DNA of 13,707 nucleotides from a virus. The position numbers and the translations under genes were made by a program. The notes below the pieces were generated by a model. That model did not search any database. It worked only from the letters and a program-made list of their open reading frames with translations, and had not been told where the DNA came from. Each line of letters starts with the position of its first letter. The stretch's first letter is position 1. Positions 2,992 through 12,015 of the stretch are shown in pieces. The stretch is taken from UHGV virus genome UHGV-1773340. The stretch is one strand, 5' to 3'.

Positions 2992-3315
2992 ATGGAACTC
3001 GTAAACCTCAAAACCGGCACTGACAGCTACCAGGATGAGAGCGGAGAAACCAGAACTCGCGATGAATACCCGTGGGGGCTGTGCATCACTCTTAATAACG
3101 ACACATTGAATAAGCTGAAGGCGCAACCTCAGGGCGTCGGAACAGAAGTGATGATAACTGCAAAGGCTGTTATTCGAGGCCTGTCTGCCAGAGAAACTGA
3201 CGATGGTGTTAATCGCAGCGCCGATCTGCAGATCACTGATATGGCGATCGCTCCTGTTTCCGGGGATGTAGAAAAATCAGCGGCTGAAACTCTGTACGGT
3301 AACGGAGGTGAGTGA
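2992..3315 (+). CDS. hypothetical 107-aa protein; its C-terminus shares the SAAE-x-LYG motif with the scaffolding protein
   Basis: AGGAG at 2982..2986 lies 5 nt before the ATG at 2992; the track's GTG at 2986 is less likely. The stop TGA at 3313..3315 overlaps the next start. Confidence 0.6.
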   Translation: MELVNLKTGTDSYQDESGETRTRDEYPWGLCITLNNDTLNKLKAQPQGVGTEVMITAKAVIRGLSARETDDGVNRSADLQITDMAIAPVSGDVEKSAAETLYGNGGE

Positions 3316-3920
3316 TGGCCTCTGTAGTAGAGATCTGTAATCGTGCGCTGTCCAATATTGGCAATAGCCGCAGCATTAACAGCCTGACGGAAGCCAGCAA
3401 GGAAGCGGGGGAATGTTCGCTGCACTTTGAGGCCTGCCGTGATGCTGTGCTTTCTGATTTTGACTGGAACTTTGCTACCAAACGCGTGGCGCTTGCAGAT
3501 ACGAGCAATCCACCGCCTGACTGGGAATATGCGTACCAGTACCCGTCCGATTGTCTGCGCATTACTGAAATTATGCTTCCTGGTGTACGCAATCCAACAG
3601 CAGCAATGCGCGTTCAGTACGAAGTTGGTGCAGACACCAACGGAACAGGAAAATTGATCTATACAGACCAGCCGCAGGCATGGCTCAAGTATGTCTCTCG
3701 CGTTTCAGATGTGAACATGTTTGATGCCATTTTTATGGAGGCGCTGGCCTGGCGTCTTGCGGCAGCCATTAACATGGCGCTGACTGGGAATGCGGATCTC
3801 GGTACATTTGCTCTCAATATGTACAATCGCGTGATTCTTAGTGCTGGTTCGCATAGCCAGAATGAATCACAGGAACCACAGCCACCGGTTGACGAGTTTA
3901 CCATTGCGAGGTTGTCCTGA
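3315..3920 (+). CDS. tail tubular protein A-like (T7 gp11-like adaptor/gatekeeper), 201 aa
   Basis: About 200 aa, immediately upstream of an ~820-aa protein, matching the gp11/gp12 pairing. GGAGGTG at 3304..3310 precedes the ATG at 3315 (TGATG overlap). The N-terminal pattern recalls T7 gp11 from memory. Confidence 0.6.
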   Translation: MASVVEICNRALSNIGNSRSINSLTEASKEAGECSLHFEACRDAVLSDFDWNFATKRVALADTSNPPPDWEYAYQYPSDCLRITEIMLPGVRNPTAAMRVQYEVGADTNGTGKLIYTDQPQAWLKYVSRVSDVNMFDAIFMEALAWRLAAAINMALTGNADLGTFALNMYNRVILSAGSHSQNESQEPQPPVDEFTIARLS

Positions 3921-6391
3921 TGGCTATCAGTTGGATCCAGCCCAGCTTTGCTGGTGGTGAGATTGGACCGTCGTTGTACGGTCGTATCGACATGGCGAAG
4001 TACCAGGTGGCATTGCGCAAGTGCGATAACTTTATCGTGCGGCAGTATGGCGGCGTTGAGAATCGACCTGGTACGCGTTTTGTCGGTGCCGCCAAATACC
4101 CAAATCGGAAATGCCGCCTGATCCCGTTCCAGTTCTCGACGGTTCAGACTTATGCTCTGGAGTTCGGACACCAGTACATGCGCGTTATCAAAGATGGTGC
4201 GTTGGTGCTGAACAGCAGCAATGTTATTTATGAAATTGCCACGCCATATACTGAAGCCGATCTGTTCCGAATTAAATTCACGCAAAGCGCAGACGTGCTT
4301 ACGCTTGTTCATCCGGCATACCCGCCGAAAGAGTTGCGTCGCTATGCGCATGACAACTGGCAACTGGTTGATGTGGTAACGAAGAACGGACCATTTGAAG
4401 ATATCAATATTGACGAGTCAGTGACGGTTTATGCCAGCGCCAGCACCGGGACAATTACGTTAACGGCAAGCGCCTCTATTTTTGGCGCGGAGCAGGTAGG
4501 CAAATTGTTCTATCTGGAACAGCCTGCAGTGGATTCAGTGCCGGTATGGGAAACCAGTAAGAGTACGTCGATTGGCGATATTCGCCGTGCAGACAGTAAC
4601 TACTATCGCGCCGTTACAGCAGGCAAAACAGGTACTTTGCGCCCTTCGCATACAGAAGGCACATCATGGGATGGCTGGGGCGGATCCGGTGATGATGATA
4701 CTGGTATTGAGTGGGAATATCTGCACAGTGGTTTTGGCATTGCCCGTATCACTGCTGCAAATGGAACTACTGCAACTGCCGAGGTGATTTCCTATATCCC
4801 TTCGCAGGTCGTTGGCGAGGATAATGCCAGCTATAAATGGGCTAAATATGCCTGGAACAGTGTTAATGGTTATCCTGGCACTGTTGTTTATTATCAACAA
4901 CGTCTTTACTTCGCCGCATCGACTGCGTTCCCTCAGACTATCTGGGCCAGCCGTACCGGGGATTATAAGGATTTTGGCAAAAGCAATCCTACGCAGGATG
5001 ACGACAGAATTATCTACACCTATGCCGGGCGTCAGGTTAATGAGATCCGCCACCTGATTGATGTTGGTTCGCTGGTGGCGCTGACTTCCGGAGGTGAGTA
5101 CGTCATCACCGGCGACCAGAACAAAGTATTAACCCCATCATCATTTGCATTCAGCTCTCAGGGATCAAATGGCTCGAGCAATGTCCCACCAATTGCCGTG
5201 GCGAATATTGCTCTGTTCGTCCAGGAGAAAGGCAGTGTTGTCCGTGATCTGGCCTACTCATTCGATGTTGACGGCTATCAGGGGAACGACCTGACCATCC
5301 TTGCTAATCATCTTTTTCAGAAGCACAGCATCGTTGACTGGTGCTTCTCTATTGTCCCTTACTCCAGCGCCTTCTGCATTCGTGATGACGGTAAATTACT
5401 GGTGATGACCTATTTGCGTGATCAACAGGTTTTTGCATGGGCACCACAGTCCAGTACCGGAAAATATGAAAGCACATGCAGTATCAGCGAAGGAAATGAA
5501 GATGCGGTGTATTTCGTCGTTAACCGAACCGTTAACGGGCAAACAGTGAGATACATCGAGCGGCTGTCCAGCCGTTTATTTACCAGCGATGAAGATGCTT
5601 TCTTTGTTGATTCTGGCCTTAGCTATGATGGAAGAAATACGTCTGACAGAACGATGACCATCACTGGTGGTTCTGGTGAATGGGATTACCGTGCGGAATA
5701 TACAATCAGTGTTTCTGGTGGTGCGTACTTCACCAGTAGTGATGTCGGCGCGCAACTACAGTTCCCTTATACCGGAACTGTTCCTGATACTGGCGATGAA
5801 GTGTCAAAAGAATTACGTTGCGACATTATTTCTGTAACCAGCAATACCGCTGTAGTGGTTCGTGCTAACAGGAACGTCCCGCCATCCCTCAGGAGTGTGG
5901 CCACCACGAACTGGCAGATGGCGCGCCGGACATTTGGAGGCCTGTCTCATCTTGAAGGCCAGGCCGTAAACATTCTCTCTGATGCGAACGTGGAACCACA
6001 GAAAGTGGTTTCCGGAGGTGCCGTCACGCTGGAATCTCCGGGGGCTGTAGTGCACATCGGCCTGCCAATAACTGCTGAATTCGAAACACTGGATATCAAC
6101 ATTAACGGACAGGAAACGCTGCTGGATAAAAAACAGGTAACCCCCTCCGTTACTCTGGTTGTGAATGCCAGTCGCGGCATCTGGGCGACTACGCCCGGCG
6201 GTAAATGGTACGAATATCCACAGCGTGAATTCGAGTTCTACGATGATCCTGTTGATGATGCTACCGGAAAAGTAGAAGTGAAACTGGACAGTAACTGGGG
6301 CAAAAACGGACGTGTAAAAATCCGTCAGCTTGACCCGTTGCCGCTGTCTGTTCTTGCCGTTATTCCTCGCCTTACTGTTGGGGGATTCTGA
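3920..6391 (+). CDS. tail tubular protein B-like (T7 gp12-like nozzle), 823 aa
   Basis: 823 aa. The N-terminus (MAISWIQPSFAGGEIGPSLYGR…ENRPGTRF) resembles the remembered T7 gp12 N-terminus (…KNLKGGISQQP…LQKRPP…). Gene order and TGATG coupling to the previous gene support the call. Confidence 0.65.
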   Translation: MAISWIQPSFAGGEIGPSLYGRIDMAKYQVALRKCDNFIVRQYGGVENRPGTRFVGAAKYPNRKCRLIPFQFSTVQTYALEFGHQYMRVIKDGALVLNSSNVIYEIATPYTEADLFRIKFTQSADVLTLVHPAYPPKELRRYAHDNWQLVDVVTKNGPFEDINIDESVTVYASASTGTITLTASASIFGAEQVGKLFYLEQPAVDSVPVWETSKSTSIGDIRRADSNYYRAVTAGKTGTLRPSHTEGTSWDGWGGSGDDDTGIEWEYLHSGFGIARITAANGTTATAEVISYIPSQVVGEDNASYKWAKYAWNSVNGYPGTVVYYQQRLYFAASTAFPQTIWASRTGDYKDFGKSNPTQDDDRIIYTYAGRQVNEIRHLIDVGSLVALTSGGEYVITGDQNKVLTPSSFAFSSQGSNGSSNVPPIAVANIALFVQEKGSVVRDLAYSFDVDGYQGNDLTILANHLFQKHSIVDWCFSIVPYSSAFCIRDDGKLLVMTYLRDQQVFAWAPQSSTGKYESTCSISEGNEDAVYFVVNRTVNGQTVRYIERLSSRLFTSDEDAFFVDSGLSYDGRNTSDRTMTITGGSGEWDYRAEYTISVSGGAYFTSSDVGAQLQFPYTGTVPDTGDEVSKELRCDIISVTSNTAVVVRANRNVPPSLRSVATTNWQMARRTFGGLSHLEGQAVNILSDANVEPQKVVSGGAVTLESPGAVVHIGLPITAEFETLDININGQETLLDKKQVTPSVTLVVNASRGIWATTPGGKWYEYPQREFEFYDDPVDDATGKVEVKLDSNWGKNGRVKIRQLDPLPLSVLAVIPRLTVGGF

Positions 6392-6855
6392 TGATCGATG
6401 TTCGAATTATTCCCGCCACCGAAGAGCATCTTCAGATGATTTTGCCGGATGTTCGTCAGGCTGATATTGACGAACTGTATGCGGTATCACTGATGACTAC
6501 CGAAGATGCGCTGCGTGTTGGTCTGCGTACTGCGACTATGGCCTGGTCAGGATTTGCGAACGGAGAACTGGTAACCATGTTTGGCGTATCTCCGGCGTCA
6601 ATGATCGGTGGCAATGGTACGCCCTGGCTGGTCGGAACCAGCCGTATTGAAAAATATCAGAAGACATTTCTTCGCCACTGCCGCCCGGTATTGCAGCAGA
6701 TGCTGGCAGTTTATCCGCGCCTGGAAAACTATGTCGACGAGCGAAACCATGTTGCCAAAGCATGGCTGCACTGGCTTGGATTCAGGCTTGAAGAAGCCGC
6801 GCCTTATGGTGCTCTTGGTCTTAATTTCCACAGATTTCACATGGAGAGAAAATAA
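6391..6855 (+). CDS. internal virion protein at the gp13 position, 154 aa; possible GNAT-like fold
   Basis: TGATG overlap with the previous gene. The C-terminal segment …ERNHVAKAWLHWLGFRLEE resembles the N-x-x-A-x-x-L-x-x-x-GF motif of acetyltransferase-type folds. This is a weak, motif-level observation. Confidence 0.55.
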   Translation: MIDVRIIPATEEHLQMILPDVRQADIDELYAVSLMTTEDALRVGLRTATMAWSGFANGELVTMFGVSPASMIGGNGTPWLVGTSRIEKYQKTFLRHCRPVLQQMLAVYPRLENYVDERNHVAKAWLHWLGFRLEEAAPYGALGLNFHRFHMERK

Positions 6856-7400
6856 TGTGCGATCCGGTTATTGCTGGTGGCGCAATGCTCGCCATGAGTG
6901 GCATTCAGGCATACACCCAGTACCAACAGGGAAAGTATGCCTCGAAGGTTGCAGAAGCGAACGCAGATATAGCCACAGCTCAGGCAAATGATGCAATAAA
7001 CAGAGGTAACGCTGAAGCTGAGCAACGGCGCAGAGAGACCCGACAGCGGCTTGGTACACAGGCGGCGACAATGGGGGCTACCGGCGCTGATTTATCTACA
7101 GGTAACGCGCTGGATATATTTGGCGACACTGCCCAGTTTGGCGCTCTTGATTCTCTGACGACGGTGAATAACGCGCAACGCGAGGCTTACGGTTATCAGG
7201 TTCAGGCTGCCAACTATAAAGCAGAAGCCAGTTCAGTCCGTAAACAGGGGAATGTGGGAGCAGCAACAACATTGCTCACTGCGCCTCTGAAGGCATACGG
7301 TGCGTACCAGATGTTTGGTGGGACGTGGAGTCCGTTTACTCAAAGCACCCCTGCGCCAATCGGGGCAGCAGCAGGAACCAGATTACCCGGAGGATTATAA
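6855..7400 (+). CDS. internal virion protein B-like (T7 gp14-like), 181 aa
   Basis: The N-terminus [20 protein letters not shown]… recalls the T7 gp14 N-terminus (MC…I…SGAQA…). The protein is Ala/Gly/Gln-rich, about the same size as gp14, and in the gp14 position. GGAGAG at 6843..6848 precedes the start; TAATG overlap. Confidence 0.6.
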
Positions 7401-10216
7401 TGCCAGTCGTACCAACAGTATCCGGCCGTCAGGTTCAGAGCCGTGGAGTTCAGTCAGCAGGCTTGCAGACGTTTTCTCAGCCAGGTATTGGTGATGCTTT
7501 TGTTCGGGCAGGGACAGAGGCAATTGATGTTTTTGGTCAGGCAAAACAGCGTGCCAATATCGCTCTGGCTCAGGAGGCATCTCTTAACCTCAGTCAGATA
7601 AGCAGTGATCTGCTGAATAATCCTGAAACAGGATTGCTTAACCTGAAAGGGAAAAATGCTATTGGAAAAGGTCAGGAGTATACGCAGCAGTTTGATGCTC
7701 AGGTCGAACAACTGGCTATGTCGCTGCCGGATGAACAGGCTCGTAATGCTTTCATGCAGCAGGCGCAGCAGCAGCGCATTCAGTTCACTACGCAGGCAGG
7801 GCGGCACGAGATAGGGCAAATAAATGCCTACGAAGAAGGCCAGTTTCAGGCTACGCTGCTGAACAATGGTAAAAATTCCGCAGCATTGTATGGCGACAAC
7901 GCCGCATACGTATTGGCTAATAAGCAAACTTTCCAGCAAATTGAGGATTACGGCATTGCACATGGCTGGAGTGACGAGCAAATCCAGGCCAAGAAAATCG
8001 AGTTTAAAGAGAAGGTTGCTGATGCTGCATTGTCCCAGTGGTCAGCAAATAACGCGATCGGCTTCATTCAGAGCAACGGTGAGCTGAGCGACACGGTAGC
8101 CGGTTCACGGCGGGCTACTGTTAACCCTTATGGTGGTGAGCCATCATCTACGAAAGGAATGGTTACCCAGGGGAACATTAACTTATTCAACCGACCATCT
8201 GTAAAAAACGAAGATGGTACTATCAGCACGGTAAGAACTATTTCCATAGGCACTGATGCAGGTGAAGTCCTGATACCAACGGTCAGTGATGACGGTAAAT
8301 TACTTTCAGATGATGAAGCAATCGCGCTATATGAAAAAACAGGAAAGCACCTTGGAATATTTGATAATCCTGATGATGCGACTGCATATGCTGAAAAGTT
8401 GCACGAGCAGCAAGATCAGTATTATGTGAAAGGTGATAGCGGCGATGCCAGGGGTATCCGCAACAATAACCCAGGAAACCTTGAAGCCAGCTCATCAAAC
8501 CCATGGATTGGGCAGACTGGTAGTGATGGCCGGTTTGCAAAATTCGAGACTCCGGAGCATGGGATCCGCGCGCTGGGCCGCAACCTCATATCCTACCAGC
8601 GACAGGGGATTGATACCGTTGGCGAGATCATTAACCGTTGGGCGCCGCCGTCTGACAATAACGACACGGCTGCATACATCAAAGCAGTTTGCGCGCAGTT
8701 AGGCGTAACGGCAAACCAGCCTCTTGACGCTTCCAATCCTGACACGCTGCAGGCACTCTGTGCCGCCATCATTAAGCATGAAAACGGCAGTCAGCCATAC
8801 AGCCAGGATCAGTTGTCCACCGGCGTCAGCGCAGCTCTTGGGCTGTCACAGTTGCCAACCAGCAATAAACGCTACACCGGCAATGCAGCATTCGACGCCG
8901 CCACGCCGGAAGCGCAGGCCACTTTTCTGCGCCAGGCTGATCAGATCCGCCGGCAGCAGCAGGCCGAATACAGAACGGTTATCGATAGCCAGGTTCGCGA
9001 CGCCACCGCGGCTTACATGCGAGGTGTTGAGTTCCCAAACCCGCCAGGGGAAGCTGATTTTATGGCTGCCTACGGCGTGCGGGAGGGAAACCAGCGTTAC
9101 ACCGAATTCAGGAATACGCAGATTGCCGGGCAGTACATTGGCTCATTCCGCAACATGCCGACAAGCAGCATTACAGCATATGTTGAGCAATTACGCCCGG
9201 ATACTGGTGAGACAGGGGAGGGTTATGCGGCACGAGCCGCTCTTTATGACAACGTTGTGTCGGCTGCAAGTCAGGTGATAAAGCAGCGACAGGCTGATCC
9301 TGTACAGTTCTCTCTTGCCGCCGGACAGGCAAAGCCTATCGACATGAGCAATAAGGATAACTTTGGACAGAGCGTTGCCTTGCGTGCTGCTCAGGTCAGT
9401 GACCTTGCTAAGTCATATGGCACTCCACTGACGTTCTTTTCCAAAGACGAGGCCAATCAGATCGGTGTTTTCTTTCGTGATGCGCCCGTTTCCCAACAGG
9501 CAGCATATCTCGATACCATCAGGCAGAGCACTGGTGGTGGGCAGGTGTATATGTCAGCACTACAGCAGATCAGTGCCAACGCTCCATCTGCTGCCGTTGC
9601 CGGGATACTGATGGATAAGCCTGGTGGTATTTTGGCAGAAAAAAACTGGTTTAATCCGGATGTTTCCGTGTCTCCTGAAACCGCTGCGCAGACAATTCTT
9701 GCTGGCGCGGCGGCTCGTAAAGGTACTGATGATGCGAAAGGTATTCCGATGCCTAAAGATGCTGATCTTCGCCTTGAGTTTTCTGACATGGTGAAGGATG
9801 CATTTGCTGGTGACGCTCAGGGGGCATCAATGGCATACGAGATCGCAAAGGATTATTACGCTGGTGTGATGGCGAAAAAAGGCGTGGTATCAGGCGAAAT
9901 TGACAATGATGTCTGGAAACAGGCTGTTAACGTAGCTACAGGTGGCGTGCATGACTATAACGGAATGGGGAATGTCCTTTTGCCGTGGGGAATGTCTGCA
10001 GAGCAATTCGATAAGCAGGTTAATCAGGCTTGGAATGAACAAGTTGTCGGCTCCGGGATAAAAACACCGCCTGGTCAGTATGGTTTGCAAAGTTACGGCG
10101 ATAGTCAGTACCTGGTGAAACTTGGTACTGGTTATCTGCTGAAAGATGATGGTTCTCCCGTTGTTCTTAATCTGACACAGAAGCGTCAGAGATTCTCCGG
10201 AGATATTCCGCAATGA
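7400..10216 (+). CDS. large internal virion/ejection protein (938 aa) at the gp15 position, with a central conserved-looking module
   Basis: GGAGGA at 7389..7394 lies 5 nt before the ATG at 7400, which overlaps the upstream TAA. The track's start at 7325 would overlap the upstream gene by 75 nt and is rejected. A central segment (nt about 8440..8830: …[45 protein letters not shown]…[13 protein letters not shown]…) looks like a globular, possibly enzymatic domain. Confidence 0.7.
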
Positions 10217-12015
10217 GTTACTTTGGCCTTAATCCAGTAAACCAGAATCAGCAGCTTGACGAAGCAGCATCAAATCCAGCTGGCTTTAACAGCGATGTTG
10301 GTTTTTTCGACAATGCTGTAGGAGCGGCATTGTCTGGTTTGTACTCCGGGCTGGTGGCAAAGCCAGATCAGTTGCTATGGGCAGGGATGGATAAAATCGT
10401 ATCCCCGATCGCTCAGTTTGTTAACGAAAACACCTCGCTCAATGACACTTCAGTTTCATACATTGCTGAGCAGAGAAAACTAGCAGAGCAGCAGGTTAAG
10501 CGGCTGACGCCTGATGCCGCGACAACCGGAACCGCCGGGCAGGTTCTTTATGGGTTGTTCGATATGGGCGGGCAGGCTGTTGTCGGTACAACGCTCGGTG
10601 GTCCTGTCGGAGGTGCAGCGGCGGTAACTTCGCTACAGGGTTTTTCTGAGTTTGAACGGCTGACAGCACAGGGGGTTGATTTCAGGACGGCGCAGGAAGC
10701 GGGATTAGTGCAGGGCATTACTGCTGGTGCCGGAACACTGATCCCTATGAGCCTCGGGTTACGTGCTGGTGGTGCGCTGGCGGAAGGTGTGGCGGCTCAG
10801 CTTGCGCGGACGGGTGAGAGTTCAGTGCGACGCGCCGCAGCAACAGCAGTACGTGCAACGCCAGATATTGCCTATGCCGCAGGTACAAATATTGCGTTCG
10901 GTATGGCACAGCGTGGGCTTACTGCAAAAACGCTTCGTGATGGTGGCTATAGCGAAATGGCTAACCAGTATGATGTGTTGGATCGACAGGCAATTGCTAT
11001 TGATGCTGTTCTTGGGGTGGCGTTTGGTGGTGTCGGCAGATTTATTAACTCTCGCGGCGAGTCTACAAACGCACCAAATTTTTCACCAGTTGATATCGAT
11101 GCTGCACTGGCGGCGAATGCCGCTCATCATGCTGAAATTGATATTGCGCCCGGCGTGCCGATCAACGTGCTTTCGCGCAATTCTCACATTCAGGCTCTGC
11201 GAAAAGCTATGTCTGATGTTAGCCAGGGGAGATCTGTAGACGTTGCCAGCATTGTTGAGTCTGCATCTTTCAGTGAAATTCCTGGGCGCAAGAGTCTGCT
11301 GTCTCAGGCAGTTAATGAGGCTCTGTCATCTGTAGATGATGGAGTAACGGCGCGCGCTATAGAAAATCGGTTGCTTGAAGAACAGGCCGCGCAGCTTTTG
11401 CCGCGTGGAGATAGACAGGTTTACCAGTCTGAAATCGCTAATAGCCAACGAATTATTGAAAATCTCAATGAACAGCGTGCACAAATTCTTGCAGAAGATC
11501 CAACCGGTAGCGGTAAAGCTTTGTCTCGTGCTCGATCAGATAAACAGGCCAGACTTCGCGATATTGATCAACGAATCCGGCAGGCACAAGAACGCCTGGA
11601 ATTTTCCCGTAACGCGTTGGCACCGCACGAGCCTGGCGGTCAGTTTTTTGAAGCTCGAGCAGAACTGGCTCGGAGACAGCAGGCAGAAAGTGAACTTAAT
11701 GCTCAGGCTGTTTCATTCTATAAAACAGCAGAGGTCAGGACGCCAGACGAAGTAGCTCCTTTTGAGCTTGATAAAATATTGCAACAGGCAGAACAAAAAA
11801 TGATGGCGGATCAGGCGGGAGATATTGATCTGCGCATAGCTGAAGACTCGCTGCTTGAATCACCTGACATGATAATCACCGTGCTGGATGATGATGGTAA
11901 TCCACAATCGCGCAGCGCGCGTGAAGTACTGGATGAAGCGAACAGGGAAAGTGAGCAGGCAATACAGGATTCCAGCCTGTTTGATGTCGCTGTGGCGTGT
12001 TTCTTGAGAGGTTAA
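10213..12015 (+). CDS. internal virion/ejection protein (600 aa) with Gly/Ala-rich hydrophobic segments and a charged helical C-terminal half
   Basis: ATGA overlap with the previous gene. Residues about 105..280 contain several GxxxG/A-rich hydrophobic stretches (for example [19 protein letters not shown] and [31 protein letters not shown]). The C-terminal half is Arg/Glu/Gln-rich and coiled-coil-like. Confidence 0.7.

Follow-up and report, generated by a model that had tools for sequence, protein, structure and literature searches.

A predicted Enc34-type lysin domain and an apparently uncatalogued, highly conserved module in an epsilon15-gp15-type protein of a phiV10-like podophage

The gene and its two central modules

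The stretch of DNA considered here, 13,707 nucleotides (nt) of the UHGV virus genome UHGV-1773340 and referred to below as the window, is a block of structural genes from an epsilon15/phiV10-like podophage of the genus Uetakevirus, an Escherichia coli (pro)phage. Its gene at positions 7400-10216 encodes a protein of 938 amino acids (aa) that had been singled out, from the letters alone, as an internal virion protein with an uncharacterised central module. The open reading frame (ORF) is indeed present. It starts with the ATG at 7400 behind a GGAGG ribosome-binding site, ends with the stop codon at 10214-10216, and its product has a mass of 100.8 kDa, an isoelectric point (pI) of 4.9 and no transmembrane (TM)-like segment in any of its 938 residues. 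Start and stop codons overlap as TAATG at the junction with the upstream gp14-like gene. An alternative upstream start, GTG at 7325, falls within that preceding gene, and the start equivalent to ATG 7400 is used in RefSeq and in all phage records. Because the product matches phrog_992 over its full length (E=0) and has orthologs in phages and prophages, the target is a real coding gene and not a chance ORF. Orthologs with 84-92% nt identity occur in 25 phage records, and phiV10-like prophages related to the window were found in 570 of 5,426 complete E. coli genomes.

The target is the ortholog of epsilon15 gp15 (842 aa, AAO06078.1) and of phiV10 gp18 (837 aa, YP_512272.1), to which it is 60% and 93% identical at the amino acid level, respectively (alignment A1). 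Current labels range from 'hypothetical protein' (RefSeq) to 'head protein' or 'capsid and scaffold' (phage records), and relatives are labelled '(minor) structural protein'. The record of epsilon15 gp15 reads 'putative lytic transglycosylase' and cites only a remote HHpred link to SltB. The gene can be divided as follows:

7400..10216, + strand: target gene, 938 aa
7400..8116, + strand: N-terminal domain, aa 1-239; phrog_1044, 19141, 36437 and 10475 match aa 1-~235 only
8000..9050, + strand: recombinant central cassette of SPN1S type, modules A+B, aa ~200-550; delimited by sliding 150-nt identity
8117..8446, + strand: module A with linkers, aa 240-349; conserved core at aa ~255-345, nt 8162-8434
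8447..8854, + strand: module B, aa 350-485, predicted Enc34/PHA02564-type lysozyme-like muralytic domain; from phmmer, AlphaFold2 (AF2) and Foldseek
8639..8641, + strand: codon of W414, equivalent to Enc34 Trp79, a substrate-positioning aromatic residue, in NRWAPP; from the 7q47 alignment and alignment A1
8675..8677, + strand: codon of Y426, equivalent to Enc34 Tyr95, a substrate-positioning aromatic residue, in AAYIKAV; same alignments
8780..8782, + strand: codon of E461, equivalent to the proposed catalytic Glu131 of Enc34, in KHENGS; same alignments
8855..10216, + strand: C-terminal domain, aa 486-938; phrog_35810 matches aa 738-938 and phrog_992 the full length

The central region had been described as one compact, conserved-looking block. 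Both peptides on which this description was based are present, GNINLFNRP...IPTV at aa 258-295 (nt 8171-8284) and GIRNNNPGN...QLGV at aa 352-436 (nt 8453-8707), and the range given for them, nt about 8150..8830, was accurate. The sequences are thus real, but they belong to two separable modules rather than to one block (alignment A1). Module B (aa ~350-485) is common to the target, phiV10 gp18 and epsilon15 gp15, whereas module A (aa ~240-349) is an insertion of ~108 aa relative to these two orthologs, placed in the linker that joins module B to the N-terminal domain. In larger protein samples the two modules occur independently of each other. A single central domain was rejected on these two grounds.

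The same region stands out at the nucleotide level when identity to the phages SPN1S, PAS61 and phiV10 is followed in sliding 150-nt windows. The central ~1 kb (8000..9050) is 91-100% identical to Salmonella phage SPN1S and 73-82% identical to PAS61 and phiV10, while the flanks (codons ~1-200 and ~570-938) show 96-100% identity to phiV10/PAS61 and 65-85% to SPN1S. With breakpoints near nt ~8000 and ~9050, the target gene is a clean recombinant in which an SPN1S-type cassette lies inside a phiV10/PAS61-type gene. The central cassette is therefore an exchange unit, and the pattern implies, as far as sequences can tell, that it has been exchanged between E. coli and Salmonella Uetakeviruses. The C-terminal half of epsilon15 gp15 is only ~40% nt-identical to the target.

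The two flanking domains have no counterpart among characterised proteins. The N-terminal domain (aa 1-239) has no Pfam or PDB sequence match. It is kept among epsilon15-type gp15 proteins and many other carriers of module A, and its PHROGs (phrog_1044, 19141, 36437 and 10475) recur in 12-15 of 80 other carriers. The C-terminal domain (aa 486-938) has no Pfam or PDB match and no recognisable family beyond its orthologs. It also occurs in two further module-A carriers (P0171 and P0247) and is presumably the structural or channel-forming part of an ejection protein.

Module B and the Enc34-type lysin family

Profile searches, structure prediction and Foldseek comparison, as had been suggested for the central block, gave different outcomes for the two modules: module B led to the structure 7Q47, and module A to no family and no structural neighbour. 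Pfam (E<=0.1) and NCBIfam scans of the whole target protein returned no match, and a search of PDB sequences matched two entries only, 9VVP chain L and 7Q47. In phmmer, module B aligns with 'Gp29' (9vvp_L) over target aa 350-483 at E=5.5e-38 and with the Enc34 endolysin (7q47_A) over aa 350-465 at E=7.7e-17 and ~37% identity. The AF2 model of aa 345-490 (predicted local distance difference test, pLDDT, 90.6) consists of five helices and a small hairpin. It resembles chains A and B of 7q47 in Foldseek (E=1.8e-10, TM-score 0.79-0.80), and no other entry of the PDB copy searched, which was one without 9VVP, appeared below E=0.8. The modelled module has the all-helical alpha-lobe lysozyme-like fold that defines the family, its helix order being seen through the alignment only.

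The reference for this family is the catalytic domain from Enc34's endolysin ORF39, a member of PHA02564 that has been solved (7Q47) and is muralytic (Cernooka et al. 2022, PMC8943055). The domain (ORF39deltaC) lyses E. coli, Pseudomonas aeruginosa and Hafnia alvei with permeabilised outer membranes; Glu131 occupies the catalytic position, Trp79 and Tyr95 are conserved, and an N-acetylglucosaminidase mechanism like that of GH73 has been argued for (PMC8943055). In the PHA02564 fold the catalytic helix follows alpha4, which is a permuted arrangement relative to GH23 and GH73 (PMC8943055). The Trp/Tyr/Glu triad is also conserved in PM2 P5 of the same family (PMC9502842), and the N-terminal part of a type VI secretion system (T6SS) effector belongs to PHA02564 as well (PMC13340143).

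Residue equivalences were taken from the 7q47 alignment, in which the chain index equals the numbering of the paper plus 1. W414, Y426 and E461 of the target are invariant in the phiV10 and epsilon15 orthologs, and among 47 module B homologs Y82 is invariant, and W70 and E117 are so with few exceptions (A8 numbering). By sequence and model, module B is a member of the PHA02564/Enc34-type family with its triad intact, and the expectation that the protein carries a wall-degrading domain would be borne out by this predicted module. It was likewise correct that the canonical signature of soluble lytic transglycosylases (SLT) is lacking. Neither PF01464 nor the ES...GLMQ...AYN motifs were detected, the putative catalytic Glu lies in KHENGS, and no Pfam model matches aa 350-500 at E<=10, so a canonical SLT/GH23 identity of module B was rejected.

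The original prediction had further proposed a different or undescribed enzyme or an envelope-binding domain. For the module B half this does not hold, given the PHA02564 assignment, the structure 7Q47 (PMC8943055) and the label of the epsilon15 record; for the module A half it is a live description. Module B is neither uncharacterised nor new: the family was characterised in 2022, the architecture of an ejection protein with such a domain is known in principle, and similarity to PM2 P5 was already stated in the phiV10 annotation of 2005.

As a side observation, chromosomes of Leclercia, Buttiauxella and other enterobacteria encode many 'hypothetical proteins' of ~265-385 aa with a PHA02564 domain as their C-terminal half (P0278-P0330). 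This half is 48-60% identical to module B, and one cluster has 181 members. These proteins could be prophage lysins or secreted or T6SS effectors.

Module A: conservation, carriers and gene neighbours

A hidden Markov model (HMM) profile of module A was searched against 1.84 billion cluster representatives and found 5,352 of them at E<=1e-3 and 2,159 at E<=1e-30. The module alone as a query retrieves hundreds of proteins at 50-75% identity, and the best-scoring matches are mostly free-standing proteins of 93-190 aa without a Pfam domain. In a set of 119 sequences, 15 positions never vary and a further 25 are at least 90% conserved; in the core, 44 of ~88 positions are at least 85% conserved, many of them polar. 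The consensus includes GNIDLxxRPxVxNxDGSISTVRS, TGxHLGxF and LHxxQ, and the conserved polar residues are R265, N270, D272, S276, R279, E289, T294, D297, D298, H317, H335, Q338 and Y342.

Module A matches no Pfam model beyond noise (best E=0.06, LPD models included) and no NCBIfam family, and in PHROG it has a single marginal match, to a family without functional annotation. A comparison of its profile with all PDB sequences returned noise only, and a literature search with its motif strings found none of them in a relevant context. The AF2 model (pLDDT 81, predicted template modelling score 0.68) has three or four beta-strands and two helices, of which one is short and the other, at the C-terminus, long. 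It has no structural neighbour with a known fold and no similarity to known hydrolase folds; its only matches in a viral structure library are its own homologs, which are uncharacterised. No similarity in sequence or fold was detected to LysM, SH3b, PG_binding_1, SPOR or OmpA-like domains. Taken together, module A is, judged from its sequences, a genuine, uncatalogued beta+alpha domain family of ~90 residues that is mobile and extremely conserved.

Two motif-based readings of the module were considered. LAS enzymes (M15, M23, M74) share an H-x(3-6)-D...H pattern, and H317...[D/E]325...H335 was examined as a metallopeptidase site of this type; it was rejected, as the spacing is H-x7-[DE] with the second His 10 residues on and there is no fold match. 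The most conserved loop of the module, at aa 268-279 (nt 8201-8236), VKNxDGSISTVR, presumably resembles positions 3, 5, 6, 8 and 9 of a calmodulin EF-hand or DxDxDG-type calcium loop (N-x-D-G-[ST]-I-S), a likeness that we take to lack the Asp of position 1 and the Glu of position 12 and that falls in a loop modelled at pLDDT ~70.

Carriers of module A are 100-2,500 aa long, and the domain can be N-terminal, central or C-terminal. They comprise ejection, polyvalent and probably tape-measure proteins, or the module forms a gene of its own of ~110 aa. These solo forms (~93-130 aa) are abundant and soluble-looking. At least 572 IMG/VR contigs carry the module, compared with only 19 of 50,697 cultured-phage records. 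The cultured carriers are the SPN1S/PAS61 subset of Uetakevirus; the P22-like Bas106 and Aeromonas phage 4_4512, with module A near the N-terminus of a gp16-type 'DNA transfer protein'; the Zobellviridae phage Klyazma, with module A at the C-terminus of an 'IVP-C-like protein'; and CVT22, a Proteus phage and four Rhizobium phages. Prophages with module A reside in Alpha-, Beta- and Gammaproteobacteria, Desulfobacterota, Planctomycetota, Verrucomicrobiota, Acidobacteriota, Gemmatimonadota, Bacteroidota and Cyanobacteria. The hosts are thus almost all diderm, with two cases in metagenome-assembled genomes of Actinomycetota and none in Firmicutes, in a scan by short exact peptide patterns that is biased towards close relatives.

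Pfam domains within +-250 residues of module A were recorded in 80 prophage carriers. All but one of the 17 matches, that is 16, act on peptidoglycan or polysaccharide (SLT 5, Phage_lysozyme2 4, Polysacc_deac_1 2, M15_3 2, M23 1, Lysozyme_like 1, Phage_lysozyme 1). A PHA02564 domain is present in six further module-A carriers and, in 11 of 11, abuts module A on one side or the other, 0-33 residues away. M15 peptidases abut it in 7 of 7 cases (gaps <=7 residues, again in both orders), and SLT domains lie within 0-78 residues in 9 of 14. In all, module A abuts at least eight unrelated families of peptidoglycan-acting domains. Minimal two-domain carriers combine it with SLT, with M15 or with GNAT.

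Nine gene contexts of solo module A were sampled, and two of them are lysis cassettes. In a 60-kb metagenomic contig (L093) an M15_3 endolysin gene and the solo gene overlap at the stop codon of the former, within a complete cassette that reads:

L093:5538-8234: lysis cassette with an SLT-like protein of 262 aa, a 1-TM holin-like protein, the M15_3 endolysin, solo module A, a 2-TM protein, an i-spanin-like protein and a lipobox o-spanin-like protein

It is possible that this cassette specifies a two-component endolysin made of the enzyme and module A. In the second contig (L177) the solo gene runs into the start of a GH24 lysozyme gene; it comes after a holin-like protein and a lipobox lipoprotein and before the terminase genes. 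Because module A is tied to peptidoglycan degradation, independently in entry proteins and in lysis cassettes, and to diderm hosts, a peptidoglycan-directed accessory role would suit it.

Five of the nine solo genes adjoin a portal gene: four follow it directly, and the fifth (L006) directly precedes the presumed portal gene, with the terminase on its other side. The portals belong to at least two unrelated families (P22_portal and Head-tail_con), translational coupling is frequent, and one case belongs to an epsilon15/BPP-1-like phage. Another solo gene lies in a tail module, and a further one (L092:7001-14387) directly upstream of the gene for a polyvalent protein of 5,550 aa, in which ART-PolyVal and a LAGLIDADG (intein-type) domain occur. 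Portal-adjacent and polyvalent-adjacent positions are typical of packaged, injected proteins (framework of PMC5512222). It is conceivable from these positions that module A is a packaging or assembly adaptor of the portal, scaffold, core or ejectosome, unrelated to peptidoglycan, the more so as ejection, polyvalent and tape-measure proteins all need loading into the particle; neighbouring hydrolases would then be the usual ejection cargo. We regard this as improbable. An adaptor that co-evolves with its partners should diverge, yet module A is 55-75% identical across unrelated portals (P22_portal, Head-tail_con) and capsids; the two lysis cassettes place it beside soluble endolysins, where capsid targeting would be senseless; and an adaptor does not explain direct abutment to hydrolases within very long multi-domain proteins.

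The head block of the metagenomic phage with solo module A between terminase and portal (L006:10487-11107) also encodes an Acb2/Tad1-hairpin protein, like the sponges that act against CBASS and Thoeris, and a Cpn10 co-chaperonin.

Whole-protein scans of carriers longer than 1,000 aa revealed LPD38, LPD23, InPase, ddrB-ParB, Zeta toxin, 2'-5' RNA ligase, Acb1, GNAT, C39 and M48 domains, in addition to SLT and VanY. Capsid-packaged, injected 'polyvalent proteins' with such domains have been described by Iyer, Burroughs, Anand, de Souza & Aravind 2017 (PMC5512222). Module A might accordingly be read as an injected effector that acts on a conserved periplasmic or envelope protein or lipid of the host, for instance by inhibiting wall repair or a nuclease or by binding membranes. 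Its company in the large polyvalent proteins (LPD38, LPD23, InPase, ddrB-ParB, Zeta toxin, Acb1, GNAT) would agree with such a role, as would the almost exclusively diderm hosts and a degree of conservation that suits a conserved host target. The effector domains unrelated to peptidoglycan are, however, found elsewhere in the long carriers and not within +-250 aa of module A, and the lysis cassettes put the module at the end of infection as well as at its start, which leaves an effector function very improbable.

Proposed role at entry and comparison with known systems

The order of genes in the window bears on the role of the whole protein:

Left end of the window: portal stub
404-1105: protease/scaffold gene
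1114-2106: GP7-type major capsid protein
Between the capsid gene and the tail tubular genes: Bbp16-type cement and gp10-type staple proteins
3312-6391: tail tubular A- and B-like proteins
6391-6855: gp13-like gene
6855..7400, + strand: T7-gp14-family virion core protein, 181 aa; PF24072 at E=2.9e-7 (above the family cut-off), phrog_418 'internal virion protein'
7400..10216, + strand: target gene, as above
10213..12015, + strand: downstream gene, 600 aa; full-length match to phrog_1145, synteny with phiV10 and epsilon15
Right end: gp17-like gene, only its start in the window, continuing past the right end

The gene at 6855..7400, named 'virion core protein, T7 gp14 family' in RefSeq, fixes the syntenic position of the target gene. 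As had been noticed at the outset, the target occupies the place of T7 gp15, directly after the PF24072 (T7_gp14) gene. Podophage ejection proteins are encoded in such a block, which comes after a gp14-family core gene and ahead of the tail-fibre or spike genes, and the order is the same in phiV10 and epsilon15. The lack of resemblance to T7 gp15 itself was also seen correctly, since there is no Pfam match and, outside aa 350-483, no PDB sequence match, though structures of the T7 core/ejectosome have been solved (PMC8954989). The downstream product is the ortholog of epsilon15 gp16 and phiV10 p19 and is a probable further ejection or injection-apparatus protein. The gp17-like gene had been suspected to be missing at the right end; this was rejected, as its ORF simply runs off the window. 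A 98-aa ORF after the portal stub (111-407), considered as a solo module A, does not match the module A profile and was rejected as well.

Two observations concern the gene in the gp13 position (6391-6855). Its Pfam match to T7 Gp13 is sub-threshold (E=0.088), and its epsilon15 ortholog is labelled 'acetyltransferase' via an HHpred match to GNAT. A GNAT domain is also fused to module A in a few carriers.

What the sequences show is the membership of module B in its family and the conservation of its residues, the insertion, spread, architectures and gene neighbours of module A, and the mosaic origin of the cassette; the virion location, ejection and enzymatic activity of the target, and whatever module A does biochemically, are inferred. 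The target would be an epsilon15-gp15-type virion protein of a phiV10-like E. coli podophage, encoded after a T7-gp14-like core gene. Proteins encoded in this place are thought to exit the particle before the DNA and to build a conduit across the envelope. A two-module cassette would be placed between its N- and C-terminal structural domains. Once in the periplasm, module B, as an all-helical lysozyme-like glycosidase, might open the peptidoglycan locally and allow the conduit to reach the inner membrane, a job that T7 gp16 performs with its N-terminal SLT domain. Module A may be an optional add-on, recombined into some lineages, whose most likely task is to position or retain the hydrolase beside it, or else the ejection protein as a whole, on the diderm sacculus; a second wall-modifying activity is the alternative. 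That peptidoglycan-hydrolase domains move between gp15- and gp16-like ejection proteins is established and regarded as typical (PMC8954989). We consider it reasonably probable, on balance, that the target is an injected wall-breaching protein in which module B cleaves peptidoglycan and module A serves as a peptidoglycan-directed accessory.

Several observations weigh against this picture. About 70% of module A carriers have no recognisable hydrolase near the module, and in the gp16 homologs of Bas106 and 4_4512 and in the IVP-C protein of Klyazma it is the sole recognisable module. Tandem copies are found in only 3 of 364 carriers, unlike LysM, SH3b and choline-binding repeats. Known wall-binding domains tend to be basic, and module A, with a pI of 4.4 in the target and a family median of 5.5, is atypical in being mildly acidic. 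The enrichment of hydrolases near the module may in part reflect a base rate, peptidoglycan hydrolases being the commonest Pfam-recognisable domains in ejection and tape-measure proteins. A literature search, which did not cover the primary epsilon15 papers, found no experiment that shows ejection or muralytic activity for the target or its orthologs. As to location, a passage of one source lists gp4, gp20, gp15 and gp17/16 as the epsilon15 injection device (PMC12391199, citing Guichard 2013), and a review assigns the internal core of epsilon15 to gp17 alone (PMC5850374). The sources thus differ between internal core and tail hub for epsilon15-type gp15, and the 'internal' location of the target is tentative. 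Work by Guichard from 2013 is said to have placed epsilon15 gp15 in the central tail tube.

Some of these points can be turned into arguments for catalysis. Module A could be a small new enzyme that cleaves or modifies peptidoglycan, in which case the target would be a bifunctional virion-associated lysin (glycosidase B plus the activity of A), like many virion-associated hydrolases with two domains, and solo copies would be autonomous mini-lysins that are either packaged beside the portal or made together with an endolysin that cuts a different bond. The abundant solo forms of ~100-130 aa, the single-copy habit, the acidic pI, the unusually conserved polar residues and the many carriers without another recognisable hydrolase (Bas106, 4_4512, Klyazma) all fit an enzyme. 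So does its pairing with both glycosidases and peptidases, as is seen for complementary activities, and its location at the N-terminus of P22-like gp16 homologs, where T7 gp16 has its SLT domain (PMC8954989). An enzyme is less easily reconciled with a core of only ~85-90 residues, with the absence of similarity to a known hydrolase fold and of Cys, a known catalytic motif or canonical LAS-type spacing from its sequence, and with the moderate confidence (pLDDT 68-73) at which the most conserved, N-terminal loop (model residues 21-40, aa ~260-279) is modelled. On its own, the enzyme reading appears rather unlikely. For an accessory role directed at peptidoglycan, substrate binding or positioning is probably the first choice for module A on the sequence evidence, with a novel catalytic activity as a close second. 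In its widest form the proposal is a tentative one, and somewhat doubtful: module A would represent a hitherto unseen kind of very small domain (~90 aa) that acts on peptidoglycan and is folded like no solved structure, capable of novel catalysis or of a novel, highly specific recognition of the diderm sacculus. Thousands of phages would use it at entry, within ejection, polyvalent and tape-measure proteins or as a solo protein packaged beside the portal, and at exit, as a partner of endolysins, and it would be the most conserved element of otherwise hyper-variable injection proteins.

The module B half is ordinary in comparison, being one more ejection protein with a predicted Enc34-type lysin domain, and the present labels of the target could be replaced by 'ejection protein with Enc34-type lysin domain'. 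Interest rests almost wholly on module A, which occurs in more than 5,000 protein clusters and, in phages whose diderm hosts differ widely, keeps roughly half of its positions almost unchanged. Its function, once known, would annotate thousands of phage proteins, explain a recurrent part of the poorly understood DNA-ejection machinery and possibly offer a new module, for targeting or for catalysis, to those who engineer lysins against Gram-negative bacteria. The solo proteins, being of 93-130 aa and soluble-looking, are easy experimental targets.

Among known systems, the Enc34 endolysin ORF39 shares sequence, alpha-lobe lysozyme-like fold and the Trp/Tyr/Glu residues with module B, and further relatives of its domain are M4Lys of Salmonella phage BSPM4 and PM2 P5. 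In Enc34 the domain is the N-terminal part of an endolysin with a C-terminal two-helix membrane anchor and acts at lysis, whereas module B lies in the interior of the 938-aa target, a structural or ejection protein without TM segments, and presumably acts at entry.

The SLT domain of T7 gp16 and the lysozyme of K1E/K1-5 gp35 are muralytic modules in proteins that are encoded after gp14 and expelled before the DNA (PMC8954989), an arrangement that the target would share. A mutant of the T7 gp16 SLT domain is reported to be defective on cells that are in stationary phase, at low temperature or highly cross-linked (Moak & Molineux 2000, cited in PMC8954989). The lysozyme of K1E/K1-5 gp35 resides, as in the target, in the protein at the gp15 position and not at the gp16 position (PMC8954989). 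The target differs from both in that its predicted lysin belongs to PHA02564 rather than to GH23 SLT or GH24 and is accompanied by module A. The rest of the protein has no detectable similarity to T7 gp15 or gp16, and gene position alone makes it equivalent to gp15. Epsilon15 gp15 and phiV10 gp18 have the same N-terminal domain, genomic position and module B with invariant triad as the target, but both are without the ~108-aa module A.

Among solved structures, residues 3-134 of Gp29 in 9VVP come closest to module B; the protein has 1,295 aa, and the entry contains four chains of it. In Gp29 this domain is N-terminal, like the SLT domain in T7 gp16, and nothing in the protein matches module A. 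From size and copy number our guess is that it is a T7-gp16-like core protein; a literature search for 9VVP found no paper or description.

Module A itself can be compared with two kinds of mobile domains. Like module A, the LPD domains of polyvalent proteins occur solo, next to portal genes and in phage proteins of 1,000-5,000 aa (PMC5512222). Module A matches no Pfam LPD model, and it is tied to peptidoglycan hydrolases and not to nucleic-acid- or nucleotide-directed domains. The second kind are the wall-binding modules. PlyC is a two-component lysin whose catalytic and binding subunits come from separate genes, and in general LysM, SH3b, PG_binding_1 and SPOR modules, like module A, are found on either side of unrelated muralytic domains or, as in PlyC, are encoded by a separate adjacent gene. 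Module A differs from them in being acidic rather than basic, single-copy rather than tandem, and abundant both as a stand-alone protein and in proteins without a recognisable hydrolase.

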